Shown in pieces: positions 1-37,563 of a stretch of DNA of 64,000 bases (its first letter is position 1; each line of letters opens with the position of its first letter). The stretch lies in the IMG/VR virus record IMGVR_UViG_3300030518_000006, positions 32,774-96,773 of that record; one strand, 5' to 3'. Below the pieces are notes generated by a model. It worked only from the letters and a program-made list of their open reading frames with translations. It had not been told where the DNA came from and ran no database searches. This DNA is from a virus. The position numbers were made by a program, and so were the translations under genes.

Positions 1-1122
1 GATGGTCACCAACGACACCGTGGGCGTATTTGCGGCGGTGCTTGTCTCCAGGCCCCACGCAAAGTCGAGAGCGGTCTGAGCGGGGAGTGAAGCGACGGTG
101 ACACCGGCCAGGGCAGTCGTGATGGTCGACAGGCTGGTGCCGTTGGTCGCTATAGCGGAGAGCGTCGTAGTGGTCCATGCCGAGCCGTTCCGGTACTTCC
201 ACGTCGTACGCCCATCGAATGAGACCAGGCCGACCAGGGTCGTGCCAGATGGTGTGGTACTTGTAAAGGTGACCGAGGTAATGCTGGCCGGGCTGAAAGC
301 CGCCAAGGAGAAGCTCGACCCAGTGGAGGTCGTGGCGTAGTACATTGTCCCGGTCGGGTAGGTATAGGTACCAGGCCCCAGGATCTGCACTTGATTCAGC
401 TCTACGTGATACGCACTCCCTCCTACCGAATTGGTGAAGGCTATCTGGTAGTATCGATAGGGGGTCGAGTTAGAAAACGTGTAGCCGGATGCTGAGGCAT
501 TTGTTGGGTTCTGTCCAGTGCGAGAGTCGAGCGTCGTCCACGGCCCAGTCAGGCCGATGTTCGAGCCGCTCACCGTCCAGGCTGATGGAGCGTTATTAGC
601 TTGCTGGTAAGCGCCCACGAGGTAACCCGTGGCCACTATTGCTGAGCCAATATCTATGGCCGCAGTACCGGTGTTATATGTCGCAAATTCCATTTGTGAG
701 GTGGTATAGAGGTTGGTCGTGCACCAGGTCTGGTATGCATTGAATCCCGACTGGATGAATGTTCCAGCCGCCGCGTAGGGGCTCGGTGCGGAGTTGGACG
801 TCATGGACACTGTGGGGTAATAAGTGCCGGCGCTGAGCGTAGCGAATAGGCTGAGCGCATTCAGATTCGGGGTGACGTTGATCTGCGTCCCCGAAGCAGA
901 ATTCTGCTGCACATAATTGCTGGCGCTGGAGAAGTTATCACTCGTGCTGGTATAGGTCGACGCGGTGACCTGCTTGCTCACTGCCAGGGCGTATTCGTTA
1001 TTTGTGATCGCGGGATGCGTGACTACTACCGAATCGCCAACGGTTCCATAAGCGGACAGTGTGACCGGATTGGTGCTGGTCTGAGTGATCGAGAGTGTTT
1101 GTGCAATGGGATTGAAGCTCAT
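1..1122 (-). CDS. Spike/receptor-binding protein paralogue 1 (3' end runs off the window), discoidin/F5-8C-like domain
   Basis: ATG at 1122 reads MSFNPIAQTLSITQTSTNPVTL..., homologous to the N-termini of the next two genes; 42-921 appears identical to 1324-2203; missing from the ORF track because it has no stop in the window. Confidence 0.75.
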   Translation of the reverse strand, partial: MSFNPIAQTLSITQTSTNPVTLSAYGTVGDSVVVTHPAITNNEYALAVSKQVTASTYTSTSDNFSSASNYVQQNSASGTQINVTPNLNALSLFATLSAGTYYPTVSMTSNSAPSPYAAAGTFIQSGFNAYQTWCTTNLYTTSQMEFATYNTGTAAIDIGSAIVATGYLVGAYQQANNAPSAWTVSGSNIGLTGPWTTLDSRTGQNPTNASASGYTFSNSTPYRYYQIAFTNSVGGSAYHVELNQVQILGPGTYTYPTGTMYYATTSTGSSFSLAAFSPASITSVTFTSTTPSGTTLVGLVSFDGRTTWKYRNGSAWTTTTLSAIATNGTSLSTITTALAGVTVASLPAQTALDFAWGLETSTAANTPTVSLVTI

Positions 1123-2203
1123 ATCAAGGCACCTGGAGGGCGGCTTGAATCTGGAGCGCCGCCGGGGTATTGTTGACGAGGACCGTGGTGGTGCTGCTCG
1201 CTCGCAACATGCCGATATCCTGGGTCGCCACTCCCAGTTTGCCCACTGAGGCAGACTGGTACGCGGCAGGAAGTGCGATCACGATGGTGACCAGGAATAC
1301 CGCTGGTGTAGCTGACGCACTGGTTGTCTCCAGGCCCCACGCAAAGTCGAGAGCGGTCTGAGCGGGGAGTGAAGCGACGGTGACACCGGCCAGGGCAGTC
1401 GTGATGGTCGACAGGCTGGTGCCGTTGGTCGCTATAGCGGAGAGCGTCGTAGTGGTCCATGCCGAGCCGTTCCGGTACTTCCACGTCGTACGCCCATCGA
1501 ATGAGACCAGGCCGACCAGGGTCGTGCCAGATGGTGTGGTACTTGTAAAGGTGACCGAGGTAATGCTGGCCGGGCTGAAAGCCGCCAAGGAGAAGCTCGA
1601 CCCAGTGGAGGTCGTGGCGTAGTACATTGTCCCGGTCGGGTAGGTATAGGTACCAGGCCCCAGGATCTGCACTTGATTCAGCTCTACGTGATACGCACTC
1701 CCTCCTACCGAATTGGTGAAGGCTATCTGGTAGTATCGATAGGGGGTCGAGTTAGAAAACGTGTAGCCGGATGCTGAGGCATTTGTTGGGTTCTGTCCAG
1801 TGCGAGAGTCGAGCGTCGTCCACGGCCCAGTCAGGCCGATGTTCGAGCCGCTCACCGTCCAGGCTGATGGAGCGTTATTAGCTTGCTGGTAAGCGCCCAC
1901 GAGGTAACCCGTGGCCACTATTGCTGAGCCAATATCTATGGCCGCAGTACCGGTGTTATATGTCGCAAATTCCATTTGTGAGGTGGTATAGAGGTTGGTC
2001 GTGCACCAGGTCTGGTATGCATTGAATCCCGACTGGATGAATGTTCCAGCCGCCGCGTAGGGGCTCGGTGCGGAGTTGGACGTCATGGACACTGTGGGGT
2101 AATAAGTGCCGGCGCTGAGCGTAGCGAATAGGCTGAGCGCATTCAGATTCGGGGTGACGTTGATCTGCGTCCCCGAAGCAGAATTCTGCTGCACATAATT
2201 GCT
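42..2203. repeat. ~880-bp direct repeat (42-921 = 1324-2203)
   Basis: Sequences match by eye at offset 1282; the ORF track gives the same 80-aa shadow ORF at 98-340 and 1380-1622. Confidence 0.9.
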
Positions 2204-2404
2204 CGCGCTCGAGAAATTGATGCCAGTATTGGTATACGACTGCCCTGAGACGTACTTCGATACCGTCAGCGCCAGTTCGTTGTTGGTCACGGCTGGATGA
2301 GTGATCGTGACTGAGCTTCCATTGCCGCCGCCGCCCGCGAGGGTAATCGGATTCGTGCTCGTCTGGGTGACCGACAGTGTTTGCGCAAGGGGGGAGTAGG
2401 ACAT
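1124..2404 (-). CDS. Spike/receptor-binding protein paralogue 2, discoidin/F5-8C-like domain
   Basis: 426 aa, Ser/Thr/Ala rich; APSAWTVSGSN..WTTLD..TPYRYYQIAFT is discoidin-like. Confidence 0.7.
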   Translation of the reverse strand: MSYSPLAQTLSVTQTSTNPITLAGGGGNGSSVTITHPAVTNNELALTVSKYVSGQSYTNTGINFSSASNYVQQNSASGTQINVTPNLNALSLFATLSAGTYYPTVSMTSNSAPSPYAAAGTFIQSGFNAYQTWCTTNLYTTSQMEFATYNTGTAAIDIGSAIVATGYLVGAYQQANNAPSAWTVSGSNIGLTGPWTTLDSRTGQNPTNASASGYTFSNSTPYRYYQIAFTNSVGGSAYHVELNQVQILGPGTYTYPTGTMYYATTSTGSSFSLAAFSPASITSVTFTSTTPSGTTLVGLVSFDGRTTWKYRNGSAWTTTTLSAIATNGTSLSTITTALAGVTVASLPAQTALDFAWGLETTSASATPAVFLVTIVIALPAAYQSASVGKLGVATQDIGMLRASSTTTVLVNNTPAALQIQAALQVP

Positions 2405-2405
2405 C

Positions 2406-3683
2406 TTAGACCACCTGCAGAGCAGCTTGGATGGTCAGGGCGGCATTCGTATTATTGAAAAGCGCTGTCGTCGTGGCCGTGAGCCGCACCATGCCAATAT
2501 CCTGGGTGCTCCCCAAACCACCGGTGAGCGCCGCTTGATACCCGGAAGGGATGCTGATGACAACAGTCACCAGCGAGACCGACGGGGTGTTCGCGGCTGT
2601 TGTTGTCTCCAAGCCCCACGCAAAGTCTAAGCCCGTCTGCGCCGGCAAGGAGTTGATGGTCGCTCCTGCGAGTGCTGAGCTGATGGTTGCCAGGCTGGTC
2701 CCCTGAGCAGCTATAGCGGAAAGCGTTGTGGTGGTCCATGCCGAGCCATTCCAGTATTTCCAGGTCGTCTGATTATCGAATGAGACCAGACCGACCAAGG
2801 TCGTGCCGGATGGGGTGGCGCTAGTGAACGTAACAGAGGTGATGGTTCCGCCCGCATACCCGGCAAGGCCCACGTTCGACCCGGCTGAGGTCGTCGCATA
2901 ATACATGGTGCCCGTCGGATAGGTCCATGAGCCGGGGCCCAGGATCTGCACCTGATTCAGTGCTGCGACGTATGCTGAGCCGCCCACCGTATTAGTAAAA
3001 GCGAATTGATAGTAACGATAAGCAGTGGTGTTGGAGAAGGTATATGTGGACGCCGATGAACTTGTGGGATTTTGAGCGGTGCGGGTATCGAGAGTTGTCC
3101 AAGGCCCAGAAAGGCTCGTGTTAGAGCCACTAAGCGTCCAGGCAGCCGGGGCATTATTTCCCTGCTGGTAGGCGCCGACGAGATATCCAGTGGACAGGAA
3201 TGCCACTCCCATATCGATGGCAACTGTTCCCGTATTATAAGTAGAAAATTCGCACTGCGATGAGGTATAGAGGTTCGTCGTCTGCCACGCGGAGTAGGGT
3301 AGAAAAGCGTTGTTAAGATTCGTGCCGGCTGCCACATAGGGTACCGGGGCTGTGTTTGTGGTCATCGATACGGTGGGGTAGTATGTGGTCCCTCCCGAGG
3401 TCGCAAACAGGGTTAGCGCGTTTAGACTCGGGAGGGCGTTGATCTGCGTCCCCGAAGCAGAATTCTGCTGTACATAGTTGCTGGCACTTGAAAAATTATC
3501 TCCCGTATTCGTATAGGTTGCTCCGGACACGCTCTCATAGACAGCCAGCAGGTACTCGTTATTCGCAATGCTCGGATGAGTGATGACCACCGAATCCCCA
3601 ATAGTCCCCTGCGCCGCCAACGTGACCGGGTTGGTCGACGTCTGGGTGATCGACAGGGTCTGGGTGGTCGGATTATAGCTCAC
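2406..3683 (-). CDS. Spike/receptor-binding protein paralogue 3
   Basis: Colinear homologue of 1124-2404; likely GTG start at 3683 overlapping the upstream TGA. Confidence 0.7.
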   Translation of the reverse strand: MSYNPTTQTLSITQTSTNPVTLAAQGTIGDSVVITHPSIANNEYLLAVYESVSGATYTNTGDNFSSASNYVQQNSASGTQINALPSLNALTLFATSGGTTYYPTVSMTTNTAPVPYVAAGTNLNNAFLPYSAWQTTNLYTSSQCEFSTYNTGTVAIDMGVAFLSTGYLVGAYQQGNNAPAAWTLSGSNTSLSGPWTTLDTRTAQNPTSSSASTYTFSNTTAYRYYQFAFTNTVGGSAYVAALNQVQILGPGSWTYPTGTMYYATTSAGSNVGLAGYAGGTITSVTFTSATPSGTTLVGLVSFDNQTTWKYWNGSAWTTTTLSAIAAQGTSLATISSALAGATINSLPAQTGLDFAWGLETTTAANTPSVSLVTVVISIPSGYQAALTGGLGSTQDIGMVRLTATTTALFNNTNAALTIQAALQVV

Positions 3684-6600
3684 AGGACACGCCACTCCGT
3701 GCCATCGTACTGCATGGTGTAGTTCACATTGACGGTCGAGACCACGATCGTGCTGCTGCCGTCGATCGTCCCCGCGCTCGGCGCGATGGTGAGATTATAC
3801 GTCCCGCTGCCGATCATCTTCACATTCACGATCAGGCCGGTCGGCGGGGAGGCCATGAGGGTGATCTGGAAGGCGCTCGAGCTGGTATCTCCCATGATCG
3901 TATAATCAGAGGCCAGCATCGTATAGTTGGAGGTCTTGGTGGAGATCGGGTACGCGACGGCACAGGCAAAAGTCGCATAGAGCGCTTGATTGATCGTGAA
4001 GAGCGTCGTGAGGGCATTCGGCGTCGAGCTGCTCGTGGTCGCCGACGCCACCCGGAAGATGATATTACCGCCGACTCCGGTCCCTGTGCCGATGCCGCCG
4101 GCGATCGTGAAGCTGGCGCCAGCGATGTTGGCTCCTGAGCCGCCTGTGGCGTTATAGATGATTGCCTGCGGGGCAGCATTGGTCTCGCCATTGCCGATGA
4201 AGACATTGCCGATGGCGGCGGAATTGCCGCCTGCGACGAAGCGGTTGCTCGCACCCACGGCGGTCGAGTCCCCAGAGCCATAGCCCAGAAATATGTTGTA
4301 GGTGCCGGTGGTGGTCTGGTTTCCCGAATCATAACCGATAGCGGTATTGCCAATGCCAGTCATATTGTAGCCTGACCCCAATCCGATCAGGGTGTTATCC
4401 CCGCTCGTGGTCAGGGAGAACCCCGCTTGGAACCCAATACACACATTGCCGGCAGATGACGTCGCCGTGGGTGCGACTTGAGAACCAACGAAGACGTTAT
4501 CCGCTCCGGACGATGCATGCCCCGAGTTATATCCGACAATGGTATTGTCACTCGTGCCGACGATACCTGCACCCGCCAGGTTACCCACCAAGGTGTTATG
4601 GTTGCCCGTTACGGAGGCGCTGCCCGCCCCGGAGCCGAAGAATTCATTGGTAGCCACACCGGAGATGTTCGAGTGCAGGCCGGTAGTCGCTGAGAAGGTG
4701 AATAGCGTACTGCCAGTGACGGTTGAGGTCCCGTTCCAATAGGTGACTTCACCTGATGTGCCAGAGCCAGTGACGCCGCCGCCCGCCCCGAAAGGACCAA
4801 CCGTGGCGCCATTCACGCGCGCATACATGCCTGCACTGGTGATCCAGACGTCGCCATTGACGGGCGTAGTCGGGGCCGACCCTTGCCCGATGTTCAAGCC
4901 GGCCAAGGTCGTGGTGGAGGCGGGGGTCAGGACTTCATAGCTGAAGGTGACTGACGGGACGGACGGGGTGGCGGTCATCCAGGTCGTATAGGTACCCGAC
5001 ACCGATGCCCAGAAGTGAAAACTACCATCGTCGGCCCCGCCATTAGCAGGGGTACCGAAACCGAAGGTGTTGCCCGCCGTGTTCGACCACCGCTGGAAAT
5101 TCTGGTTATAGACGTCGGAGGACTGCCATGCCCATGCGTAGCCTGCCAGGGGGGAAATGACGGTGAAGAATGAGTCGAGCGCGCTGCCGTTTCCCCAGCT
5201 CAAGGCGAGGGGGAAGACGATCGTGTTCGCGATCGTGGCTGATGCGACCGCGAGAGGGGCGCCAGACGGGTAGCTGCCTGAGCAGCTGCCGCTGATGTTG
5301 CCGCCACCTCCGGAGAGTGACGCATACGCGCCACCATTCACCGATGCGTAGAAACCCTGGAGCGTATCATCGTAATAAATGGTCCCGCTGTTGCTCGGCG
5401 ACAGGGCAGGTGCGCTCGTTGTCGCGATGCCGGTCCAGGTGGTCCCGCCATCGCCCCCCACCGTCCAACGCGTGGTCAAGGTATTGGGGGTGCTGCTCGA
5501 CGTCCCGACCGGTGCGGTCTTGATGATCACCGCACCGCCCGCTCCCGTGCCCGTGCCAATGCCGCCGGCGATGGTATAGCTGGCGCCGGCAACGTTGGCG
5601 CCCGAGCCACCCGTCGCATTGTAGACCACCGCTTGCGGACTCGCGGCGGTCTCGCCATTGCCGATGAATACGGTTGATATGGGGGCGCTCAACGAACCGG
5701 CCACAAGGCGATTGCTCGCTCCTGCTGCGGTGCTGTCACCTGAGAGCGCGCCGAGGAAGATGTTGTAGGATCCGGTCGTGTTCGACTCGCCGGCATCGTA
5801 CCCCATTCCAACCAGGTATTGGCCCGTGGTTGTGGCCGTCAGTGCGCCGGCGCCGAAAGCGGCATTGTAGGAACCCGAGGAGCCGCCACCGGTCGCTCCC
5901 TCCAGTGCACTCAGGCCTACGGCCACGTTCTGCGACCCGGCGTTGTAGTAGCCCGCCGAAGATCCGATGAAGGTGTTCGGGCCCCCGGCATAGGCACCCC
6001 CCGCATGGTAACCGACGAGCGTGCTGCCGCTCGTACCCGTGATGGCGGCACCCGCGCTCACGCCGATCATCACATTGCTTCCGCCCGAGGTCAGGGCCGC
6101 CCCAGGACCATTGCCCAGCAGCGTGTTGTTCGCCCCGGTCATGGTGGTGTTGCCGGCATTGGCGCCCCATGTCTCCGTGGCCGTGGTGTTGGGTTGGTTG
6201 CAGGTCACCCCTGCACCGGTCGTATACCGGAGCGTGCTGCTGCCGGTAACGGTCTCAGTGCCATTCCAATAGACCAGCTCACCGGAAGTTCCCGATCCGG
6301 TGATGACACTGGATGGGAGATCAGCGGCCACCAGAGCTCGGAAGGTGGGCGCTGCAGCGGCTCCGGTCGTCGGGCCAGCCCATACGTAGTTGGCCGTCTG
6401 GGTCGCCAGGGTACCAGTCAAGGTACCGGACGCAGTGACGGGCGACCCGGTGACGGTGAATATGGCGGGGAGGGCAAGACCAACACTGGTCACCCCGCCC
6501 CCTCCCGTACCAAAAGGCCCGACCGTCCCGCCATTCACTTGGGCATACATGCCTGCGCTGGTGATCCAGATGTCACCGTTGTTGGGTGATGTCGGAGTCG

Positions 6601-6895
6601 ACCCTTGCCCGATGTTCAAGCCGGCCGCGGTGGTCGTCGATGCCGGGGTGCCGACGGGCACTTGGGCCGTGATCACCGACGCCCCGACGCTGAGCACCTC
6701 CGTCCCATTGACCACCACGCCGATCTTGGATGACGTGGTCGCCTGGGTCGCATAGAAGCCGATGCGATTCGATGCGGTGGCAGCGGTGACATCCCCGTTC
6801 CCGTCCGCGATTGGGAAGGCGAAGGCCAGGGCCGCGGCACTGCCGAGGATCTGGAGACGAGCGCCGAGCTTCAGGAGGAGGGATTGGGCGGCCAT
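3680..6895 (-). CDS. Fibre/spike protein with Gly-rich beta-solenoid repeats and internal duplication
   Basis: 1071 aa; N-x-x-(I/V/L)-G-x-x-A-G repeats; block TPASTTT.AGLNIGQGS.PT.P.NGD.WITSAGMYA.VNG.TVGPFG occurs twice. Confidence 0.75.
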   Translation of the reverse strand: MAAQSLLLKLGARLQILGSAAALAFAFPIADGNGDVTAATASNRIGFYATQATTSSKIGVVVNGTEVLSVGASVITAQVPVGTPASTTTAAGLNIGQGSTPTSPNNGDIWITSAGMYAQVNGGTVGPFGTGGGGVTSVGLALPAIFTVTGSPVTASGTLTGTLATQTANYVWAGPTTGAAAAPTFRALVAADLPSSVITGSGTSGELVYWNGTETVTGSSTLRYTTGAGVTCNQPNTTATETWGANAGNTTMTGANNTLLGNGPGAALTSGGSNVMIGVSAGAAITGTSGSTLVGYHAGGAYAGGPNTFIGSSAGYYNAGSQNVAVGLSALEGATGGGSSGSYNAAFGAGALTATTTGQYLVGMGYDAGESNTTGSYNIFLGALSGDSTAAGASNRLVAGSLSAPISTVFIGNGETAASPQAVVYNATGGSGANVAGASYTIAGGIGTGTGAGGAVIIKTAPVGTSSSTPNTLTTRWTVGGDGGTTWTGIATTSAPALSPSNSGTIYYDDTLQGFYASVNGGAYASLSGGGGNISGSCSGSYPSGAPLAVASATIANTIVFPLALSWGNGSALDSFFTVISPLAGYAWAWQSSDVYNQNFQRWSNTAGNTFGFGTPANGGADDGSFHFWASVSGTYTTWMTATPSVPSVTFSYEVLTPASTTTLAGLNIGQGSAPTTPVNGDVWITSAGMYARVNGATVGPFGAGGGVTGSGTSGEVTYWNGTSTVTGSTLFTFSATTGLHSNISGVATNEFFGSGAGSASVTGNHNTLVGNLAGAGIVGTSDNTIVGYNSGHASSGADNVFVGSQVAPTATSSAGNVCIGFQAGFSLTTSGDNTLIGLGSGYNMTGIGNTAIGYDSGNQTTTGTYNIFLGYGSGDSTAVGASNRFVAGGNSAAIGNVFIGNGETNAAPQAIIYNATGGSGANIAGASFTIAGGIGTGTGVGGNIIFRVASATTSSSTPNALTTLFTINQALYATFACAVAYPISTKTSNYTMLASDYTIMGDTSSSAFQITLMASPPTGLIVNVKMIGSGTYNLTIAPSAGTIDGSSTIVVSTVNVNYTMQYDGTEWRVL

Positions 6896-8287: not shown

Positions 8288-8318
8288 GGGGTGTATCCTG
8301 CAAAGAAAAGAGGGGCAA

Positions 8319-10103: not shown

Positions 10104-10106
10104 GGG

Positions 10107-12355: not shown

Positions 12356-12363
12356 GACTGCTC

Positions 12364-26532: not shown

Positions 26533-26605
26533 GTCGACCGTCAGCTGACCCGCAGCCCGGTCCTCCGCATCCTTGCGCGACCGGGCGGCACACCAGGACG
26601 AGCAC

Positions 26606-30700: not shown

Positions 30701-31027
30701 CACAAGAAGCACAAGTATTACAACATGGACACCGACTCGGGCGGTGACAACTCGGACACCAGCGACAGCGGCGAGGCCTCCGACGATGACAGTGACCTCG
30801 ACACCGGGATCAACGGCGACGTGGCCACGGGGGACATGTACCCCGAGGACGATCTCAACGAGGATGGGGGCGCCGGCTACGGCCGGGGCACCGCCCTGAC
30901 CCCGTCGATCGAAGGCCTCGGGGCCTTCTCCGCCTCCAGCCTGGTCAAGCCGGCACTCGCGATCGGCCTGGGCATCATCCTGTGGAAGACCGTCGGTAAG
31001 AAGCTCTTCAAGCGGAAGCGTGCCTGA
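27701..31027 (+). CDS. Transglutaminase-like (Cys-His-Asp) protein, candidate maturation protease, with long tail-anchored C-terminal region
   Basis: YVKD..ETL..P..EDCDG, SHVY, WAADP; then GFMPGFG/GLG motifs, Cys-rich repeats, acidic DDGGS repeats, TM + KKLFKRKRA. Confidence 0.8.
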   Translation: MRSATPSLADGDINADYSVLPENGNDAVDATVQKMVEMAAGKWGRESPKIRAAAINIVRGLDPITGERFAPQVASKDYYGMLEQIHNWVRDNIMYVKDVVGQETLSYPEETLFNSRAEDCDGQVILEMALLGSIGLQSYPVIVGMFPGHYSHVYMYAEVPPGRHRNADTTWAADPIMKDWPLGREAPADRVKAKKVYSNLAGFNMPLNGYASSDAAFSPQDELEATQVGTVLATRLTDSGGAGQIVNANRLTQWGDELDDMFNAEATVNPMQAAPASLLYARGPVVARAAREQTSYLSEAPLGGGRNRPGMRRGPLIITVKDKAVGDSVTKPKAPTVNGLMGLADYLGELAPIAKVVGKRMSVNGKRDALHATAAAAHLAKNQAKKATNRVVKLQRDGFMPGFGADMQPDKTLDVAMQIEKLAHQVSAQADQIAQLAAGSSPLRQQALSVDLGAMDYMNEHAAVSDLLDNMQLPNVPTKDMAKLKSVALVNCIQDPDVKQLAVDLAQTDLPTAPGARVKTRLPEGAIVRDQMGKVIQNGGGDDSLAGLGELTRKRRIKRALAEFNESTDTSAIANALRASANGLAGYANEPGLGRSLSQAISGVAKSVVASITVPVKAAVATVVDPIKLAQTVATGGSVKAALTSDVQNVTNPMNQALKQIVTSTQKAPSTPATPATQYEDANGNIISAGLYNSLMLNPSTPESCFDANGSALNTTGCVYAPGTPGATVTQTTGASTLSQFPGGTCFSASGASTGATGCFSPSTGAACWTFTSATTAPTATNAAPDCPMAPVSGYNPQVMGPYASGPGAQCFNVTTGQPTGVPGCTSPSTGVACYAWQGPSAPPVATNAAPDCAGATYNPYAAQQPYYPPGGGASPYDQSTPDGTNYDPNTGESLTSTPDYSNQGPPDDSGFGPDQMGPASYADNSQQDENTVAVSASGGGGFDPSGNSGITAGGQSDSGDDGSDDGGSDDGGSDDGGTDDGSGDATDVSQYNAPSQAPKHKKHKYYNMDTDSGGDNSDTSDSGEASDDDSDLDTGINGDVATGDMYPEDDLNEDGGAGYGRGTALTPSIEGLGAFSASSLVKPALAIGLGIILWKTVGKKLFKRKRA

Positions 31028-31029
31028 TC

Positions 31030-31905
31030 ATGCCCCTCCCCCGCCCCTTCGTCGACAATTCCTATCGGACTGAGAGCGTCGATCTCCAGCCGTTCGGGAA
31101 CACCGTGTCGATCGAGACGGGCTCGGACAACCCGTTCGAAGACGACCAGGGCATCGAGGTCGTAACCCAGCAGAGCGGGGGGATGGCGGGGCCTGATCCA
31201 CGGATGCGCTCGCGCAAGACCCTGGTCCGGGGAACACGCGTCACCGCGCATCCCGCCGGTGTGTCCCGTACGTACCACACCCGCAGCCAGGCCAATCGCC
31301 AGGGCTTCATGCCCGGGATGGCGGGGTTCGCCGGTCTGGGTATCGACATGCCGACTGATGACAGCGGTAGCGGCGGCGATGCCACCCCGGCCGATGCCAC
31401 CGACTTCAACGCCCTGACCACCGACCAGGATGCCTCCCTGTTCGCCCAGCCGGCACCCCAGAACCAGAACCTCTTCGCGATGCCTGCGCCGGGCCAGCCG
31501 GGCAGCGGCCTGCCCGCACCGAGCGCCGCAGCCACGCCTGCAGCTGCCCCTGCCGCCGCGCCTGCCGCTCCTGCAGCAGGTGGCGGGGGTGCAAAGGCTG
31601 CCAGTGGTGCGGCCACCGCCCTCACAGCGTTGACCGCCCTGACCCAGGCTGCCGGCCAGACCGGGACCGCGGTGCTCGCTGCCCAGACCAAGGCGGCCCA
31701 GGCGAAAGCAGCCCAGAGCAAGCTCCCAGCCGCAGCCAGCGCGCTCGGCAAGCAGGTCGAAACCTACTGGCCCTACATCGCTGGCGGTGTGGGCCTGGTG
31801 CTGGTGCTCGGCCTCGTCTTCGGTGGTGGCTCCCGCTCGACCACCGTCATCGCCGCGCCTGCAGCTGCTCCCGCCAAGACCAATCCCCGCAAACGCCGTC
31901 GCTGA
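31030..31905 (+). CDS. Tail-anchored virion protein, paralogue A
   Basis: ~100-aa leader ending GFMPGMAGFAGLG shared with next gene; TM then KTNPRKRRR. Confidence 0.75.
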   Translation: MPLPRPFVDNSYRTESVDLQPFGNTVSIETGSDNPFEDDQGIEVVTQQSGGMAGPDPRMRSRKTLVRGTRVTAHPAGVSRTYHTRSQANRQGFMPGMAGFAGLGIDMPTDDSGSGGDATPADATDFNALTTDQDASLFAQPAPQNQNLFAMPAPGQPGSGLPAPSAAATPAAAPAAAPAAPAAGGGGAKAASGAATALTALTALTQAAGQTGTAVLAAQTKAAQAKAAQSKLPAAASALGKQVETYWPYIAGGVGLVLVLGLVFGGGSRSTTVIAAPAAAPAKTNPRKRRR

Positions 31906-31914
31906 GAGATACCC

Positions 31915-32607
31915 ATGCCACTCCCCAAAGCATTCGTCGATAGCTCCTACCGCACCGAGCCCGTCGATCTGCAGCCCTTCGGCAACACGGTCTCGATCGA
32001 GACCGGCTCGGACAACCCGTTCGAGGATGACCAGGACGTGGAGATCTTCTCCCAGCAGAGCGGCGGGATGGCCGGGCCCGATCCGCGCATGCGTTCCAAG
32101 AAGACCCTGATCAAGGGCACCAAGGTCACGACCCACCAGGCTGGTGTGGCGCGCACCTACAAGACCCGCAGCCAGGCCAATCGCCAGGGCTTCATGCCCG
32201 GGATGGCGGGGTTCGCCGGTCTGGGTGCTGATCCGGCGCCAGGCCTGGACCAGGACGAGGGCAATCCGCCCGGCTACGTGCCGCCGGCTGGCCAAGCGGC
32301 CCCTGCATCCCCTGCTGCCCCTGCTGCCCCGCCCACCGGCGCCTGGGCCGCCCTGACGAGCCTGTTCTCCGCGGTTCCCGCCGGCGTCACCGCCTATGAG
32401 ACCGCCAAGAGCAACGCTCCCAAGCCCCCAGGCATGCCGCCTGCGGGCATGCCCCCGGCCCCCGGCAAGAGCACCAGCATCACCAAGATGCTGCCCTGGA
32501 TCCTGGGCGGTGTTGGCGTGCTGGTCGTCGGCGGCCTCCTGGCCGGCCGCAGCAAGCCGGCAACCGTGGTCGCCACCAATCCCCGCCGCCGGCGCCATCG
32601 CCGCTAA
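31915..32607 (+). CDS. Tail-anchored virion protein, paralogue B
   Basis: Same leader; TM then ATNPRRRRHRR. Confidence 0.75.
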   Translation: MPLPKAFVDSSYRTEPVDLQPFGNTVSIETGSDNPFEDDQDVEIFSQQSGGMAGPDPRMRSKKTLIKGTKVTTHQAGVARTYKTRSQANRQGFMPGMAGFAGLGADPAPGLDQDEGNPPGYVPPAGQAAPASPAAPAAPPTGAWAALTSLFSAVPAGVTAYETAKSNAPKPPGMPPAGMPPAPGKSTSITKMLPWILGGVGVLVVGGLLAGRSKPATVVATNPRRRRHRR

Positions 32608-32647
32608 CCCCACCAGACCTCTGCCCCTCTCCTGAAGGAACCGACCC

Positions 32648-33109
32648 ATGCAACGTGACATGTCCTACGAGCTCGACTCGGTGTTCTCTGGCCGAGGCGC
32701 TGGTGAGCTGGTGCAGGTCCAGCAGCCCCGCACCCGCATGAGCCGGACTCCCGGCCTGCAGCAGACCACCCGGTCCTCGGTGACCAAGATCAGCGCGCCG
32801 CTGGATCACAAGCTGTCCACGAGCCATCCCCACAACATCACGGCCCACAACACCAAGAGCCTGGCTCATGGTCTCGGCAAGCCGTTGAACGCCCGGTTCT
32901 ATACCGAGCCGAGCGACCTGGCAGGCATCGAGGATCTCGCCTGCGATGATGGGGACATGGGGATGGGGATGGGGGCCTATGATGACGATGACATGCCCTT
33001 CGGCGACCTGACCCTCCCGTTCATTGGCCCGGTCAGCAAGACCGGCGTCGCCATCGCCCTGATCTCCGGCTTCATCGCGTGGAAGCTGTTCAAGCCCAAG
33101 CGCGCATGA
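32648..33109 (+). CDS. Tail-anchored virion protein
   Basis: HGLG, DLAGIE; C-terminal TM + KLFKPKRA. Confidence 0.7.
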   Translation: MQRDMSYELDSVFSGRGAGELVQVQQPRTRMSRTPGLQQTTRSSVTKISAPLDHKLSTSHPHNITAHNTKSLAHGLGKPLNARFYTEPSDLAGIEDLACDDGDMGMGMGAYDDDDMPFGDLTLPFIGPVSKTGVAIALISGFIAWKLFKPKRA

Positions 33110-33594
33110 AAGCGATCCTGGGCATCGGCCGGCTGCTCGCACTGCACCTGGTCGATCCCACCACCGGTCGAACCACCACACGAAAGACCCCTGGCACATG
33201 GCTCGGATGGGACACCACGACGCGGCAATTCCTGCTCTGCAAGCCCAAGGGGCGCAGCCGGGCACCGTTACCGTCACGCGTCGTGCGGGCACATCGGCGA
33301 TTCCACGCCCACGATCCGGCCTCTGGTGGGCGCCTGGTGGAGGTGCCGACACCGATCGGACGGCGCCAGCAGATCGCGCTGATCAAGGCCCTGGACTACT
33401 TCGTGCCCAAGCAAGTGATCAGCCCCGACAAGAATCCGTTCGGGTGGACACACGCCTTTGGGGACACCGGCCACAAGGGCGGAACCTATACCGCGAAGGT
33501 GATGCCGGCGCTGGTCAGGGACTCGCGCGGTAACCTCTTCATCAAGCGGCGGAAGGGTAACATCTTCACCGTCGACACCTGGCTCCGAGGATAG
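33106..33594 (+). CDS. Hypothetical basic virion-module protein
   Basis: ATGA overlap; 162 aa. Confidence 0.6.
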   Translation: MKAILGIGRLLALHLVDPTTGRTTTRKTPGTWLGWDTTTRQFLLCKPKGRSRAPLPSRVVRAHRRFHAHDPASGGRLVEVPTPIGRRQQIALIKALDYFVPKQVISPDKNPFGWTHAFGDTGHKGGTYTAKVMPALVRDSRGNLFIKRRKGNIFTVDTWLRG

Positions 33595-33600
33595 AACACC

Positions 33601-34161
33601 ATGGCCGCCCTCCCCTTCAAACTCAAGATGAACGCCAAGACGCTCGGCATCGGCGCCGGTGCCCTGGTCGGCCTGTTCCTGGTCTACAAGCTCGCCTTCC
33701 ACAAGAGCAAGAAGGCGGCCGAGGATACCAGCACCTCCGGTGATGCCGCGGCCCTCGCCCAGATCCAAGCCCAGCTGAACCAGCAGGGCCAGACGCTCGC
33801 TGCGGCCACGGCGGCACCTGCAGCCCCAGCCTACGGCACCCCCGGATATGGGTTGCCCTACACCCCGGCGTATGCCGCTCCCACCTACGGCACCCCGGGC
33901 TATGTGGCCCCCTATGCGGCCCCGGGCACCACCCAGGCCTCAGGACCTCCTGCTACCCCGCCGGTCGGGGGGTACCAGTGGATCTGGAACGGCGCCGCCT
34001 GGACCCAGACCCCGGCCGCCACCCCGGTCGGGATGCACTGGCAGCAGCTGGGATCGACCTTCCAACTCGCCCCGAACGCTTCGAGCGTGGCCTACATCGA
34101 TCGCCGGCCGGCGAGCCCGGCCTCGATCATCCCGACCACGGTGCTCACGCCGCCGAACTAG
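33601..34161 (+). CDS. N-terminally anchored Pro/Ala/Tyr-rich protein
   Basis: TM near the N-terminus, AP.YGTPGY repeats. Confidence 0.65.
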   Translation: MAALPFKLKMNAKTLGIGAGALVGLFLVYKLAFHKSKKAAEDTSTSGDAAALAQIQAQLNQQGQTLAAATAAPAAPAYGTPGYGLPYTPAYAAPTYGTPGYVAPYAAPGTTQASGPPATPPVGGYQWIWNGAAWTQTPAATPVGMHWQQLGSTFQLAPNASSVAYIDRRPASPASIIPTTVLTPPN

Positions 34162-34764
34162 CAGATCTCCCGGTAGAGCATGCCGTCGAGCTGGACGCGC
34201 ACGTCCACGTGGCGGTCCCTCCAGTCGATGTCGCCGGTGTTGAGGACCAAGCTGAAGTGTTGAACGGGCGGGATATACAGGCTGGGAGTGATACCCAGGT
34301 GCTTGAGCCGAATCGGCGGCAACCCTGGCGCAGCAGCGGCGTCCTTCTCCACGTCGTCATCCCGCTCCATGTTCATGAGCGGCAGGTTGAAATAGAGCTT
34401 CTCACCGATCTGAAAGTAGAAAGACGCCTTCGAGATATCGACGACCTTGGAGAGCGAGATCCGGATCCCGTCGAGGAGAAATCGTTTCGGCCAGGTGAAT
34501 TGCCCGGCCGTGCGCATGTTGGTGTAGGCTTCAGACCGGCCGTTCGGATTATGGAAGAAGCAGATGGTGCTGTGGGCCGCCCACGGCTGGGTGTCATAGA
34601 TCGAGCGTCGCCCTTTCTCGAGGCGGACCCCTCCCTTGCGGTGGTCCTTGACATGGACGTACTCAACCGGGACTTCGACGAGCCAGGGGGCCCCCGTCCT
34701 TCTCTCCTTCATATACCTGGACGATCGAGCCTCTGCCCGGGTCTTCGAAGATCTTTTCAGCCAT
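34158..34764 (-). CDS. Capsid-protein paralogue, apparently frameshifted at a G5C5 run (or starting at 34712)
   Basis: RLEKGRRSIYD, YTNMRTAGQFTWPKRF, GEKLY, YIPPVQHF, LDGMLYREIC; RBS AAGGAG + ATG at 34764 is out of frame by one base. Confidence 0.7.
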
Positions 34765-34789
34765 GATGAATCTCCTTGTGGTGGTAGAG

Positions 34790-35692
34790 TTACTGGATTT
34801 CCCGGTGGATCGTGCCATCGAGTTGCACCCGGATCTCGGCCGACTCGAAATGCTTGCCGCCGGTATTGATGGTCAGGCCGAACCATTGGACCGGCGGGAT
34901 GTAGATCGTCGGGGTGATGCCCACGTGCTTCAGACGCATGCGCGGGAGCAGGGGGCCGTACTCGCCATCCTTGATCGGGTCGTCGTCCCGCTCCATGTTC
35001 TTGAGCGGCATGGTGAGGTACCTCTTCTCGCCGATCTGGAGTTCGAAGTGCGCCTCGGAGATGTCGACGAGGTGGGAGAATGAGATGCGCACGCCATCGA
35101 GATCGAAACGCTTGGGCCAGGTGAGCTGACCTGAGGTAGCTAGATTGGTGATTGCCGGCCCCCGATTCGGCCCGCCGCCGGTCTGGAAGAAGACGATCGG
35201 GGGTGGATTAGCGATGTACTCATCGCGGCGTCCCATCGGCACGTTGAACATGGTCCCATGGACCTGGGTGTCGTAGAGCGGCTGGCGACACGATTCCAGG
35301 CGGATCGTTCCGTTCTGAGCATCCTTGTGCTCGGTGAAGCGCGCACCGGGGGATGGTTTCAGGTCATCCAGGCCACGCGAGCCCTGCAAGGCATCATCCA
35401 GCTGCTTGGCAAGATCTGCGTCTGATACGTCCTCGAAGCCGGTCAGGGATTGCCAGTACTCCTCGGTCGAGCGAAAGACCTGGCCTTTCTCCGGCTTGGG
35501 GTCCTTGGTCTTCTTCGGTGGTTTGGTCGCGGCAGGCATGGAGAGATCTCCTGGCATGGGGTTGGTGGTGCGCGTCATGTGACGTTGGAGCACCTCTTGG
35601 ATGGTGAGCTGGTAGGACTCCGAATGTGCTTTGTACCAAGCCAGCACATCGGGATCGATGCGCATGGTGATCGAGGTTTTCTTCTTGGGCAT
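34790..35692 (-). CDS. BrnA-like ribbon-helix-helix domain fused to a capsid-protein paralogue
   Basis: N-term MPKKKTSITMRIDPDVLAWYKAHSESYQLTIQEVL (BrnA-like); C-term IRLESCRQPLYD..TNLATSGQLTWPKRF..GEKRYLTMP..IYIPPVQWF..LDGTIHREIQ. Confidence 0.8.
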   Translation of the reverse strand: MPKKKTSITMRIDPDVLAWYKAHSESYQLTIQEVLQRHMTRTTNPMPGDLSMPAATKPPKKTKDPKPEKGQVFRSTEEYWQSLTGFEDVSDADLAKQLDDALQGSRGLDDLKPSPGARFTEHKDAQNGTIRLESCRQPLYDTQVHGTMFNVPMGRRDEYIANPPPIVFFQTGGGPNRGPAITNLATSGQLTWPKRFDLDGVRISFSHLVDISEAHFELQIGEKRYLTMPLKNMERDDDPIKDGEYGPLLPRMRLKHVGITPTIYIPPVQWFGLTINTGGKHFESAEIRVQLDGTIHREIQ

Positions 35693-35697
35693 ACCTG

Positions 35698-35726
35698 TAT
35701 GTACGTAGATACGTACAGACTTGCAA
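35698..35726 (-). promoter_or_regulatory. Leaderless promoter with palindromic operator
   Basis: Minus strand TTGCAA-17-TACATA-5-ATG; TGTACGTA-GA-TACGTACA palindrome at 35700-35717. Confidence 0.65.
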
Positions 35727-35888
35727 GACCCGAGACGTACATACGAGCTGGGTCTTGGTGCATCGGGCGAAGGGCATAGGCTGGGCCGTGTCGCATGTGG
35801 TTGCGCCGCCTCCTCTGCTGGGGCCGCCCGATCAACAGCATATGTGCAATCGCTTCTGCCGCTCCTGATGAGCGTGACGAGAACCCCG

Positions 35889-36728
35889 ATGCCCATGATG
35901 CTGATGTCCAATCCAGGTCTGCACCTCGCCCTGCTCGGGAACCCGTATCGCGGTCGTTCCCGCAAGCGCCGTCATTCCTGTTCCAACCCTCGTCGTTCAC
36001 ACCGCCGTGCGTCCGCACGTCGGCACCGTCGTTCCCACACCCAAAGGAGAAACCCCATGGGATTCGCCAAGCAGTACGTGAGCTCCGTCAAGGCAGCTCC
36101 CCGTGAGATCCTCGGGATCTTCAAGGGCAAGAACAAGATCAAGAACATCGCCTTCGCGCTCGGTGGCGCCGTCGCCACCTACGCCCTGGGCGGAATCGTC
36201 AACACCTCACTCGTGACCCCCGGTCTCAACGCCATCCCTGGCGCGGGTCCGGCGCTCAGCGGCCCGATGGCCAAGCGCGTGATCGGTGCGGCAGTGCCCT
36301 TCACCCTCGGCTTCGTCGCCAACAAGTTCATCAAGGGTGACCTCGGCAAGGCCCTGGTGGTTGGTGGGGCTATCGCCTCGCTCGCCGAGGCGATCAGCCC
36401 CGGGCTCATCGCCCGCCTGGTCTACCACACCCCGGCTGTCGGCCCCGTGGCCGTTGCTGCAGCGCCTGCTGCCGCTGTCCAGGGCCCGGTGAACGGTCTG
36501 AATGGTCTCGGGGGCTACGTTGACGCGCGTGCGTACAACGGCACCGGGGACATGGCCCCGCTCGACGGCTATGTCGACGCCCGCGCCTACAACGGCACCG
36601 GCGAAGAGCTGGCCGGCTATGTCGACGCCCGCGCCTACAACGGCACCGGGGACATGGACGATGACCTGGCTGGCATCGGCAGCGACTACCTGACCGAGAG
36701 CACCAAGTACATGGAATCCTATCTCTGA
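35889..36728 (+). CDS. Putative major membrane/scaffolding protein
   Basis: Basic N-terminus with four NP motifs, Gly-rich hydrophobic core, three GYVDARAYNGTG repeats; directly upstream of the capsid gene. Confidence 0.65.
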   Translation: MPMMLMSNPGLHLALLGNPYRGRSRKRRHSCSNPRRSHRRASARRHRRSHTQRRNPMGFAKQYVSSVKAAPREILGIFKGKNKIKNIAFALGGAVATYALGGIVNTSLVTPGLNAIPGAGPALSGPMAKRVIGAAVPFTLGFVANKFIKGDLGKALVVGGAIASLAEAISPGLIARLVYHTPAVGPVAVAAAPAAAVQGPVNGLNGLGGYVDARAYNGTGDMAPLDGYVDARAYNGTGEELAGYVDARAYNGTGDMDDDLAGIGSDYLTESTKYMESYL

Positions 36729-36926
36729 TTGAGGTAGACCATACGTAGGGGCCGCCCGTGGGCCCCTGCCGCTCTTTCCCAATCTCTTCACCGCCTTCAT
36801 TCGGTTCGCTGCCCACCGGCGCTTTGCATGTGGGACTGACAACGACCCGTATACCCATTCCTGGAACAACGAGGAAGCCCCTCACGTTCCGGGTCCCCTG
36901 AATCCCCTCTTGGGGAGGAGAACACA

Positions 36927-37502
36927 ATGCCCGTCTTCCGCACCGTCAAGGATGCCCGCTCCGGCTCGATCCGGCTCGAAGCCATCCACCAGCCGCTGTA
37001 TGACAGCGTGCTGCTCGCCACCACCCTGCAGACGTCCGCAACGCTGTTCTCCCTCGGGAACAACGGTCGCTCGGCGCTCTACACCAACCTCCAGACCGCT
37101 GGCCAGCTCAGCTGGCCGAAGCGCTTCTCGATCCGCGCCCTGCGTCAGGTGCTCGGCTTCAACAGCGCGACCTACGCCAACGTGGCCGCCTTCTGGGCTG
37201 CGGCGTTCTACCAGCTGCAGGTGGGTGAAAAGGTTTATCTCACCATCCCGGCGTTCATCCTCACCGCCGGCGGCGGCCTGAGCCAGCAGACCCTGGTCCC
37301 GGCTACCGCCACCACGGCGGGAACCATCAACTGTGAAACCGGCTGGCCGGACCAGCGGAATATCTACTCGCTGCTGCACTCGATTTATTTGCCGCCCGTG
37401 CAGAACTTCTTCCTGGCACTGACGACCGCTGGCGGGACCCTGACCGCTTCGACGTACTGCCACATCTTCCTGGAAGGTGAGCTGCTCCGCGAAATCCAGT
37501 AA
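36927..37502 (+). CDS. Putative major capsid protein (single jelly-roll-like)
   Basis: 191 aa beta-rich; strong RBS GGAGGAG, last gene of the virion operon, followed by a strong terminator; three paralogues elsewhere. Fold is inferred. Confidence 0.6.
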   Translation: MPVFRTVKDARSGSIRLEAIHQPLYDSVLLATTLQTSATLFSLGNNGRSALYTNLQTAGQLSWPKRFSIRALRQVLGFNSATYANVAAFWAAAFYQLQVGEKVYLTIPAFILTAGGGLSQQTLVPATATTAGTINCETGWPDQRNIYSLLHSIYLPPVQNFFLALTTAGGTLTASTYCHIFLEGELLREIQ

Positions 37503-37526
37503 GCCAAACGGTTTACAAGGATTCAC

Positions 37527-37563
37527 GAAAAACCCCGGGCTTCGGCTCGGGGTTTTTCCTTTT
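37527..37563. terminator. Bidirectional intrinsic terminator
   Basis: GAAAAACCCCGGGC-TTCG-GCTCGGGGTTTTTC between convergent genes. Confidence 0.9.

Follow-up and report, generated by a model that had tools for sequence, protein, structure and literature searches.

A 97-kb viral genome encoding jelly-roll proteins and no detectable tailed-phage hallmark genes points to an undescribed lineage of bacterial viruses related to SSIP-1

Introduction

The large genomes of bacterial viruses known to us are all those of tailed phages, which have a terminase as motor. A 64,000-nucleotide stretch of uncultured viral DNA (hereafter the window) raises the question of what kind of particle a virus of comparable size might build from structural-type genes that include no recognizable tailed-phage component. 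A preliminary description of the first 37,563 positions, made from the sequence alone, had proposed a large tailless, membrane-containing lineage of an undescribed group.

The window makes up the right-hand two-thirds of one IMG/VR virus contig of 96,773 bp (G000), for which CheckV estimates a completeness of 100% and which is most likely a near-complete 97-kb dsDNA viral genome. We compared it with three relatives of 88-110 kb (G001, G002 and G003), of which G001 (109.5 kb) and G002 (87.6 kb) carry terminal repeats. A core set of virion genes is conserved among G000, G001 and G002 at 25-71% identity, and no published description of such elements was found in the literature. At a probability of about two in three, we read the contig as a member of an undescribed, SSIP-1-related lineage of 85-115-kb tailless bacterial viruses with a jelly-roll shell, an inner membrane, protamine-condensed DNA and a likely Planctomycetota host. 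As part of this reading, positions 1-37563 and about 10 kb upstream of the window would constitute the virion-building region (Table 1).

Table 1. Features of the proposed virion-building region, in window coordinates
Position	Strand	Feature	Basis or remark
1..6895	-	Three 426-429-aa paralogues and a 1071-aa protein, candidate receptor-binding spikes/fibres	
7463..11871	-	274-aa protein; 594-aa membrane protein; 261-aa Cys-rich protein with poly-Thr linker; 333-aa protein	Conserved virion-block genes
11828..13041	-	Paralogous pair of beta-rich proteins with 175 and 225 residues	Conserved in G001 and G002
13077..13622	-	181-aa protein, second coat/penton candidate	AF2 model, fold search
16892..17653	+	253-aa protein, a fourth paralogue in the family of the 191-aa jelly roll	In duplicated cassette
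18009-19844		DNA methyltransferase-deaminase cassette	Inside virion block
21066..23973	+	Four membrane proteins: 161 aa (tail-anchored), 418 aa, 223 aa (tail-anchored), 149 aa (three TM helices)	
25833..26532	+	Two protamine-like proteins, candidate DNA-condensing core proteins	Composition
26573..27697	+	374-aa protein: N-terminal TM anchor, basic-NP motifs, 60-aa mini-domain	phrog_2423, E 1e-12
27701..31027	+	1108-aa tail-anchored protein with N-terminal transglutaminase-like (papain-fold) domain	SSIP-1 gp34 homologue
31030..34161	+	291 aa and 230 aa (paralogous N-termini, TM anchor, basic tail); 153 aa (tail-anchored); 171 aa; 186 aa (N-terminal TM helix)	
34158..34886	-	242-aa paralogue of the 191-aa jelly roll	Alignment, DNA repeat
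34790..35965	-	391-aa protein: BrnA/antitoxin-like N-terminal part, C-terminal paralogue of the 191-aa jelly roll	
36927..37502	+	191-aa jelly-roll protein, candidate main coat protein	AF2 model, fold search

Absence of tailed-phage and packaging genes

Among phage genes, the large terminase is normally the one most readily recognized. About 70 proteins of the whole 96.8-kb contig were scanned against PHROG and Pfam, including all called proteins longer than 200 aa except one doubtful 220-aa frame (36207-36869) and many of the smaller ones. None fell in a family of terminases, portals, HK97 capsids, tail tubes, sheaths or tape-measure proteins, and no terminase PHROG rose above noise. Six-frame searches of G000-G003 with Terminase_6N, TerL_ATPase and Terminase_6C (PF03237, PF03354, PF17289), Phage_capsid (PF05065) and Phage_portal (PF04860) were likewise negative, while control genomes were positive every time. 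The absence of these genes that the preliminary description had noted among the structural-type genes extends to the remainder of the contig, where terminase, portal and HK97 capsid genes were sought in vain, and to the three relatives. None of the hallmarks of Caudoviricetes (large terminase, HK97-fold capsid, portal) was found, and the two proteins submitted to a fold test are both jelly rolls.

A packaging ATPase of the FtsK/A32 type, which the preliminary description had suggested looking for outside the window, was found nowhere on the genome: in six-frame searches of G000-G003, again with positive controls, FtsK_SpoIIIE (PF01580) and Pox_A32 (PF04665) gave no match over the cut-off. Below it there was a single P-loop hit (E 0.0097), to a 685-aa frame in G003. 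No RadA-like ATPase was detected in the contig or its three relatives, and the sole canonical P-loop in G000 belongs to the UvrD-like helicase, leaving no unassigned Walker A motif.

The genome encodes its own PolA (phrog_17), helicases (phrog_62, phrog_1967) and methyltransferases, together with an AbiEii toxin gene and a conserved serine recombinase that may make integration possible. That the replication genes fall in tailed-phage PHROGs would suit an extremely divergent member of Caudoviricetes, with capsid, portal and terminase too distant for HMMs and with jelly rolls serving for decoration, as fibres or in receptor binding; the spike domain and mini-domain that it has in common with tailed phages (see below) and the automatic labelling of look-alike atlas clusters as Uroviricota point the same way. 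We nevertheless consider a tailed phage very improbable, as neither PHROGs nor three Pfam models reveal a terminase in four genomes, every canonical P-loop is assigned, none of the unassigned conserved proteins resembles an HK97 capsid or portal protein in size and composition, and the one cultured virus related by sequence is a membrane phage that lacks a tail.

Two families of jelly-roll proteins

The small beta-rich proteins of the preliminary description include jelly rolls: of the four that it had named for structure prediction, the two encoded at 36927 and 13077 have this fold in the models, and among solved structures both come closest to the coat proteins of viruses that contain a membrane. 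The 191-aa protein is the most conserved virion gene product, with 71% identity in G001 and 49% in G002, and has 123 homologues, many on 80-115-kb contigs. Its AF2 model (pLDDT 80) is an eight-stranded jelly roll whose top solved match is the coat of Sulfolobus polyhedral virus 1 (SPV1; 6oj0_T, Z 9.2, 145 residues aligned), followed by HHIV-2, SPMV, HCIV-1 and P23-77 VP17; PRD1 P3 reaches Z 5.6. The top BFVD match is the unnamed 211-aa protein I1ZBH9 (TM 0.61). A profile of the family recovers 784 metagenome cluster representatives, none of them named, and has zero matches among 50,697 phage records, so that the group appears large and, as the preliminary description had proposed, undescribed.

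The same domain recurs in three paralogues. The 242-aa protein is 37% identical to the 191-aa protein and has the WPKRF, GEK, PPVQ and REI motifs in common with it. In the 391-aa protein the paralogous part is 31% identical (BLASTP, E 2e-19), and residues 93-131 match the antitoxin family phrog_4692. The cassette of the 253-aa gene is flanked by 294-nt repeats that are 95% identical.

The 181-aa protein has 117 homologues on similar contigs of 88-110 kb. Its model (pLDDT 87) comprises two N-terminal helices and an eight-stranded jelly roll, for which SPV1 is again the top solved match (6oj0_T, Z 8.5), followed by PHM (8.0), HHIV-2 (7.8), STIV A223 (7.5) and P23-77 VP17 (7.2), where a Z of 7-8 is, according to the fold-search tool, the typical best score for models lacking a clear match. 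The coat/penton proteins of HHIV-2, HCIV-1, STIV and P23-77 are within the top ten structural matches. PHM is a non-viral enzyme, and non-viral jelly rolls score close behind SPV1 for this model; fibres, adhesins and enzymes can likewise have a jelly-roll fold. The predicted folds suggest a capsid role for both the 191-aa and the 181-aa proteins. The paralogous 175-aa and 225-aa proteins (27% identity, E 1e-6) have no PHROG or Pfam match and no profile similarity to either jelly-roll family.

Membrane-anchored, basic and spike-like proteins

Many membrane anchors had been reported for this region, and hydropathy scans together with reading of the sequences bear this out, identifying about 11 tail-anchored proteins in which a terminal hydrophobic helix is followed by basic residues. 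Eight are encoded in the window (starting at 21066, 21511, 22849, 23524, 27701, 31030, 31915 and 32648) and three more just upstream of it. The membrane proteins at 21066..23973 have orthologues in G001 and match no PHROG or Pfam family, and ten related loci, among them the Planctomycetota MAG contig, hold an orthologue of the conserved 171-aa protein. These anchors suggest that the particle contains a membrane.

The basic core proteins also stand: arginine and lysine make up 40% of the 144-aa and 37% of the 76-aa protamine-like protein, both with repeated basic-Asn-Pro motifs. Their counterpart in G001 is a 166-aa protein with 43% R+K, and that in G002 a 101-aa protein encoded directly upstream of the transglutaminase-like gene. 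The mini-domain of the adjoining 374-aa protein shares about 45% identity with the 60 aa at the N-terminus of gp17, the "head maturation protease" of Obolenskvirus; what the two have in common is a mini-domain and not a protease domain. The transglutaminase-like domain of the 1108-aa protein matches Transglut_core at E 0.0022, under the curated cut-off.

Spikes had also been reported, and the candidates are large proteins at the left end of the window. The 1071-aa protein matches phrog_6002 ("virion structural protein") and phrog_4636 ("tail spike") weakly; the three 426-429-aa paralogues are 71-88% identical to each other and match phrog_38477. Similarity to the fibre-type proteins of diverse phages is confined to a domain of about 150 aa. 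Both protein types presumably form spikes.

The genes at 7463..11871 have homologues in both G001 and G002. The 594-aa protein has two N-terminal TM helices and a weakly glycosyltransferase-like C-terminal part (Glyco_trans_1_4, E 0.0035, under the curated cut-off). The view of the region as a block of structural-type genes holds for the conserved virion genes and not for the methyltransferase-deaminase cassette and other non-virion genes. The latter lie at 13.7-20 kb; the block is therefore mixed, not solely structural.

Relationship to SSIP-1 and other tailless viruses

The Salisaeta phage SSIP-1 is an icosahedral, membrane-containing virus with a 44-kb genome. Among the 50,697 phage records, its gp34, which carries the annotation of a structural protein, is the sole match of the 1108-aa protein (tblastn, E 8e-8), through the transglutaminase-like domain; the reverse search from gp34 recovers G000, G001, G002 and two blocks in planctomycete chromosomes at E 1e-11 to 5e-13. 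SSIP-1 is the only cultured relative by sequence; it has a bacterial host, as the present virus probably does, and both lack tailed-phage hallmark genes. The 191-aa profile has a weak hhalign match to SSIP-1 gp46 (E 0.018, 125 columns), and the other pairs compared gave no match; the length of gp46 equals that of I1ZBH9. Apart from gp34, no similarity between SSIP-1 genes and the present genome was detectable. SSIP-1 is 2-2.5 times smaller than genomes of the present lineage, which differs from it in having protamine-like proteins, its own PolA, helicases and methyltransferases. Conversely, SSIP-1 carries a RadA/KaiC-like ATPase, gp40, in its virion block, and this has no homologue here.

Viruses of the vertical single-beta-barrel type (Sphaerolipoviridae SH1, HHIV-2 and HCIV-1; Simuloviridae; Thermus phages P23-77 and IN93) combine two small jelly-roll coat proteins with an inner membrane and vertex spikes, and the present genome encodes two conserved jelly-roll families with a putative capsid role. 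Their coat/penton proteins match at Z 7-7.8, within the range of best scores typical of models without a clear match, and they have no sequence similarity to the present genome. As the preliminary description had stated, described single-jelly-roll viruses are much smaller: about 30 kb in Sphaerolipoviridae, 16-19 kb in Simuloviridae, 20 kb in Portogloboviridae and 44 kb in SSIP-1, with vertical single-beta-barrel viruses spanning 16-31 kb. An FtsK/HerA-type (A32-like) packaging ATPase is a hallmark of vertical single-beta-barrel viruses and has no counterpart here. Because the genome carries no FtsK/A32-type ATPase, it is not simply that of a big P23-77/SH1-like virus; the proposal of a tailless jelly-roll type is supported, and the nearest cultured relative is SSIP-1, which the preliminary description had not named. 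Tectiviridae, Corticoviridae and their relatives have a double-jelly-roll coat and an A32-type ATPase, unlike the present genome, where both modelled coat candidates have a single jelly roll and searches for A32 and FtsK gave no match.

SPV1 (Portogloboviridae; coat proteins VP4 and VP10, PDB 6OJ0), the top solved match of both models, shares only 8-9% sequence identity with the two proteins. In SPV1 a shell of jelly-roll proteins coexists with a membrane and a nucleoprotein core, and none of the gene functions assigned to it is an ATPase. The design proposed here resembles it in the jelly-roll shell, the sub-capsomer and membrane proteins and the nucleoprotein core. SPV1 also encodes a glycosyltransferase and a methyltransferase, as the present genome encodes a weakly glycosyltransferase-like protein and methyltransferases. 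SPV1 differs in its archaeal (Sulfolobales) host and its 20-kb circular genome without a polymerase, compared with 97 kb, PolA and helicases here. The likeness may be convergent or very ancient.

The many membrane proteins and the lack of a packaging motor could also be explained by a non-icosahedral element. This would be a vesicle-type virus, pleomorphic or enveloped, or else a mobile element of non-viral kind (plasmid or integrative element), with the jelly-roll and tail-anchored proteins decorating a membrane or the host surface. The serine recombinase and AbiEii toxin genes and the integration of relatives in chromosomes are in keeping with it, and the terminal repeats of relatives may only reflect circular assemblies. 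Against this, the jelly-roll models find their best matches in icosahedral coat proteins, the gp34 homologue is annotated as structural in an icosahedral phage, the two jelly-roll families and gp34 form a core conserved across elements of 20 kb to 110 kb, and no scan found conjugation genes. We judge such an element highly unlikely.

Host

A weak motif had hinted at a host in the PVC superphylum, and this gains support from two sources. Composition-based binning places the contig of one relative in a Planctomycetota MAG, and the 191-aa profile matches 6 of 400 Planctomycetota genomes. In two of these six (chromosomes of 9.3 and 9.5 Mb) the match sits in a block with 181-type, gp34-like and serine recombinase genes. 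One block, P1, encodes a RadA/KaiC-like ATPase beside the jelly-roll genes; this ATPase and SSIP-1 gp40 both have a canonical Walker A motif. The 181-type domain forms a tandem pair in these chromosomal relatives only. The chromosomal relatives are distant, at about 25% identity. From these genomic associations, the host is probably a member of Planctomycetota.

Proposed virion and genome packaging

In the reading that we favor, the particle would be tailless and membrane-containing. Its shell would consist of small single-jelly-roll proteins, the 191-aa family providing the main coat protein and the 181-aa family a second coat or penton protein, while the large beta-rich proteins would form vertex spikes. 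A lipid membrane under the shell would carry about a dozen tail-anchored viral proteins, the gp34-like protein included. The two protamine-like proteins may condense the DNA, which would be enclosed during assembly, as in SPV1, and not pumped into a preformed shell. Because no packaging NTPase of a known kind was found, we infer condensation and enclosure during assembly, and packaging would then be motor-less.

The small relatives keep a RadA/KaiC-like ATPase, and therefore the large genomes may hide a very divergent motor or use one of their two conserved helicases. On this alternative, the virus would be of the SSIP-1 or vertical single-beta-barrel type with a motor that escaped detection, either a divergent ATPase or a UvrD-like or SNF2 helicase in a second role, and the protamine-like proteins would only neutralize charge. 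Both SSIP-1 gp40 and the block P1 ATPase lie beside jelly-roll genes, a packaging ATPase is reported for every vertical single-beta-barrel virus described, and the two helicases are kept in G000, G001 and G002. Yet phmmer and hmmsearch at maximum sensitivity detected homologues of neither gp40 nor the P1 ATPase in G000-G002, there is no FtsK, A32 or TerL match and no unassigned canonical P-loop, and both helicases are located in DNA-metabolism neighborhoods outside the virion block. We consider an undetected motor unlikely, if less so than a tailed phage or a non-icosahedral element. The best gp40 match (E 0.003), a 111-aa frame antisense to a methyltransferase gene, is not conserved and was rejected.

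A more specific joint scenario is put forward tentatively, and we doubt that all of its parts hold together. It would combine descent from an SSIP-1-like virus, loss of the packaging ATPase, protamine-like condensation, closure of a membrane and single-jelly-roll shell around the genome, and a single-to-double jelly-roll transition, of which the tandem 181-type protein of the chromosomal relatives would be a living example. On this scenario, a widespread lineage of 85-115-kb bacterial viruses, probably of Planctomycetota, would be the bacterial counterpart of the archaeal SPV1 design, with a genome five times larger.

Implications

At 44 kb, SSIP-1 is the largest tailless membrane-containing bacterial virus in the literature consulted. 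If our preferred reading is true, bacterial viruses would have a second, motor-less route to genomes of about 100 kb. The single-jelly-roll virus world would be extended, with the orphan SSIP-1 gaining a large family. A coat-protein family of 784 unnamed cluster representatives, with none in the 50,697 phage records, marks a gap in virus catalogues, and the lineage would add to the little-known virome of Planctomycetota.

Hallmark genes and gene content

We scanned all called proteins longer than 200 aa on the whole 96,773-bp contig (G000), together with many smaller ones, against PHROG and Pfam, setting aside above that length one doubtful 220-aa frame. These scans assigned the enzyme genes listed in the table, whereas terminase and portal genes, and likewise genes for an HK97 capsid, tail tube, sheath or tape measure, were all missing from their results. 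Six-frame searches of this genome and three related large virus genomes (G001, G002 and G003) were negative for Terminase_6N, TerL_ATPase, Terminase_6C, Phage_capsid and Phage_portal, and nothing rose above threshold for FtsK_SpoIIIE or Pox_A32, where the only signal was a sub-threshold P-loop match in G003 (E 0.0097); control genomes were positive in each of these family searches. Among credible genes, that of the UvrD-like helicase was the only one to encode a canonical Walker A motif. Hallmark genes elsewhere on the contig, which the preliminary description had named as evidence against a tailless virus, were thus looked for and not found, and its observation stands. That the genome belongs to a divergent tailed phage is unlikely, given that neither set of searches detected hallmark families and that no stray Walker A motif was present.

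A protein matching PF17338 ("GP88") is absent from G001 and G002 and is therefore considered accessory. The AbiEii-type toxin gene and the cREC_REC gene are possible virus-borne defence or counter-defence cargo. PDB sequence searches with the 597-, 634-, 1108- and 418-aa proteins returned nothing useful.

IMG/VR lists G000 as a virus, classing its ends as "linear" and giving a CheckV completeness of 100%; the window spans its bases 32774-96773. No terminal repeat was found on the contig; the one feature relating to its ends is an exact 28-nt repeat, one copy of which lies at its very end, and this may reflect the junction of a circle, a site that simply recurs, or an artefact of assembly. Terminal repeats of 110 and 96 bp are present in G001 (109,520 bp) and G002 (87,639 bp), respectively, and G003 measures 94,993 bp. 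G000 and G001 are collinear, and because both ends of the G000 contig fall in a variable region, the genome is taken to be near-complete.

Features of the virus genome and related loci. Positions refer to the window unless a genome or locus is named.
Feature	Position	Strand	Evidence or detail
191-aa protein, candidate main coat	36927-37502
181-aa protein, second coat or penton candidate	13077-13622
191-aa paralogue fused to N-terminal BrnA/antitoxin-like DNA-binding segment	34790-35965	-	phrog_4692, E 7e-5
191-aa paralogue	34158-34886		sequence comparison
191-aa paralogue	16892-17653		sequence comparison
Repeat-bounded cassette	16614-20298
C5 methyltransferase with inserted deaminase domain	18009-19844	+	PHROG/Pfam scans
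Weak gp40-like match	~18415-18588	-
PF17338 (GP88) protein	23970-25763
RRNP and KTNP motifs	25833-27697, 31030-32607
phrog_2423 mini-domain	26873-27082		residues 97-170 of 374-aa protein
Doubtful 220-aa frame	36207-36869
AbiEii-type nucleotidyltransferase toxin gene	45546-46226	-	E 2.6e-11
28-nt exact repeat	genome 243-270; window 63972-64000
cREC_REC receiver-domain gene	genome 27227-27622 (L002:11227-11622)	-	E 7e-15
Family-A polymerase, 1625 aa	whole G000 contig		PHROG/Pfam scans
SNF2 helicase	whole G000 contig		PHROG/Pfam scans
UvrD-like helicase	whole G000 contig		PHROG/Pfam scans
dNMP kinase	whole G000 contig		PHROG/Pfam scans
HNH endonuclease	whole G000 contig		PHROG/Pfam scans
Serine recombinase	whole G000 contig		PHROG/Pfam scans
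SSIP-1 gp40	L042 24775-25737
Small serine recombinase	both planctomycete blocks
292-300-aa protein, two tandem 181-type domains	both planctomycete blocks		independent domain E 7e-10 to 2e-17
Tandem 181-type gene, G012	L031 (G012:C1:5880001-5900000) ~17703-18581	-	two hmmsearch domains
Tandem 181-type gene, G179	L035 (G179:C1:3835001-3855000) ~17886-18788	-	two hmmsearch domains
191-type protein, 205-207 aa	both planctomycete blocks		E 5e-20 and 4e-13
Tail-anchored protein	both planctomycete blocks		second one in G012
gp34-like membrane protein	both planctomycete blocks

Candidate coat proteins

The 191-aa protein has 123 close homologues, many on 80-115-kb contigs, all of them unnamed and lacking any Pfam domain. 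AlphaFold predicts an all-beta jelly roll (pLDDT 80), for which an all-against-all structural search returned the coat protein of Sulfolobus polyhedral virus 1 (SPV1; 6oj0_T) as best match (Z 9.2, rmsd 3.7 Å, 145 residues aligned), 1.9 Z units over the next row, with HHIV-2, satellite panicum mosaic virus, HCIV-1, the STIV penton and P23-77 VP17 following; Foldseek against the PDB also placed SPV1 first. [quoted passage not shown] The family profile itself aligns weakly with gp46 (E 0.018, 125 columns). Across 1.84 billion entries the profile matched 784 cluster representatives at E <= 0.001, nearly all 175-250 aa long, and the ten inspected all lacked a name beyond "hypothetical protein"; 50,697 phage records gave no match to the family, even at E 1.

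For the 181-aa protein, 117 homologues were found on contigs of similar type; it is modeled as two N-terminal helices followed by a jelly roll (pLDDT 87). SPV1 is again the first structural match (Z 8.5), but it constitutes weaker evidence here since a non-viral enzyme scores next at 8.0. Two other proteins, of 175 and 225 aa, are mutually paralogous; the Protein Atlas matches of the 225-aa one were all unnamed clusters, none offering a model. Profile comparisons among the 191, 181 and 225/175 families detected no similarity, nor did the 181 profile match SSIP-1 gp45 or gp46.

Three further paralogues of the 191-aa protein are encoded in the window, of which the fused one lies antisense to the neighbouring virion genes. 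Another sits in a cassette of lower GC (0.547) that is bounded by 294-nt repeats of 95% identity and also carries the C5 cytosine methyltransferase, whose cytidine/dCMP deaminase insertion is in frame.

Relationship to SSIP-1

The 1108-aa tail-anchored protein bears a weak transglutaminase-core signature (E 0.0022, under the curated cut-off), and the sole phage-record match of its N-terminal domain is gp34 of SSIP-1, an annotated structural protein (E 8e-8). The reverse search from gp34 found matches in G000, G001, G002 and chromosomal blocks of two Planctomycetota genomes. The circular genome of SSIP-1, a phage that contains a membrane and has no tail, measures 44 kb, whereas the G000 contig extends over 96,773 bp. 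By these sequence comparisons SSIP-1 is the nearest cultured relative of G000. A non-icosahedral or non-viral element is an unlikely source of this genome, as its conserved core comprises jelly-roll proteins whose best matches are the coats of icosahedral viruses and includes a homologue of an SSIP-1 structural protein.

Membrane and basic proteins

About 11 proteins of the structural-type gene block have a C-terminal hydrophobic helix with basic residues after it, and further ones have N-terminal or multiple transmembrane helices. Two protamine-like proteins, in which basic-Asn-Pro motifs recur, have R+K contents of 40% and 37%; their counterparts measure 166 aa in G001 and 101 aa in G002, the latter encoded directly upstream of the transglutaminase-like gene. 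The RRNP and KTNP motifs occur in the protamine-like proteins, in a 374-aa protein and, as the very last part of the chain, in two membrane proteins of 291 and 230 aa, and basic-Asn-Pro motifs are present in the G001 and G002 counterparts too.

The 374-aa protein was rejected as a "head maturation protease": the match covers a 60-aa N-terminal mini-domain (phrog_2423) and not a protease. This mini-domain is common to the N-terminus of the Acinetobacter Obolenskvirus "head maturation protease", some cyanophages and Ralstonia phages, and may serve as a transferable module for DNA binding or for targeting to the virion. The motif GFMPG was likewise discarded as a conserved cleavage site, since five copies in G000, one in G001 and none in G002 argue against lineage-wide use.

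Overall, the preliminary description's observation was confirmed by the lack of tailed-phage hallmark families in the scans, the jelly-roll models and the membrane and basic proteins, and we infer that G000 belongs to the tailless jelly-roll membrane viruses. Its interpretation as a large virus of this kind is supported but needs amending on two points: SSIP-1 takes the place of nearest cultured relative, and no packaging ATPase was found on the genome. A full-text literature search found no paper describing such a virus group.

Host and planctomycete relatives

The motif from which a PVC host had been suggested could not be confirmed, the protein at 48187 having a signal-peptide-like N-terminus and no family match. 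When one genome per species was scanned by pattern, a single close relative emerged, located on a 22-kb contig binned in a Planctomycetota MAG; because the 181-aa gene is missing from this MAG and the GC of the contig is similar to that of other sampled MAG contigs, the binning is weak evidence. The 191-aa profile matched 6 of 400 Planctomycetota genomes at E <= 1e-5, a rate without a baseline as this was the only phylum sampled. Two of the six matches, those in G012 and G179, lie deep in chromosomes that each form a single contig, their sizes being 9.3 and 9.5 Mb, and that share a syntenic block of approximately 16-20 kb. In both blocks the tandem 181-type gene adjoins a single 191-type gene, and its product may represent a case in which, inside a single family, two single jelly rolls have naturally fused into a double one.

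Genome packaging

The SSIP-1 protein gp40, whose annotation reads just "structural protein", contains a canonical Walker A motif and resembles a 283-aa Planctomycetota chromosomal protein with the zinc ribbon, Walker A and KNRFG motif of RadA/KaiC-like proteins; on these two grounds it is likely the packaging ATPase of SSIP-1. No credible homologue of either protein was found in G000, G001 or G002, and the large genomes therefore appear to lack an ATPase that their small relatives retain. One weak gp40-like match in the window was dismissed, being antisense to the well-supported methyltransferase gene.

Chiefly because the ATPase is apparently missing, we propose that the DNA would be condensed by the protamine-like proteins and the virion assembled around the resulting nucleoprotein. 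Assembly around nucleoprotein is a documented design in SPV1. The main rival explanation is a hidden motor, or a helicase serving as one. G000 is unusual among tailless jelly-roll membrane viruses both in genome size and in its apparent lack of a packaging motor.
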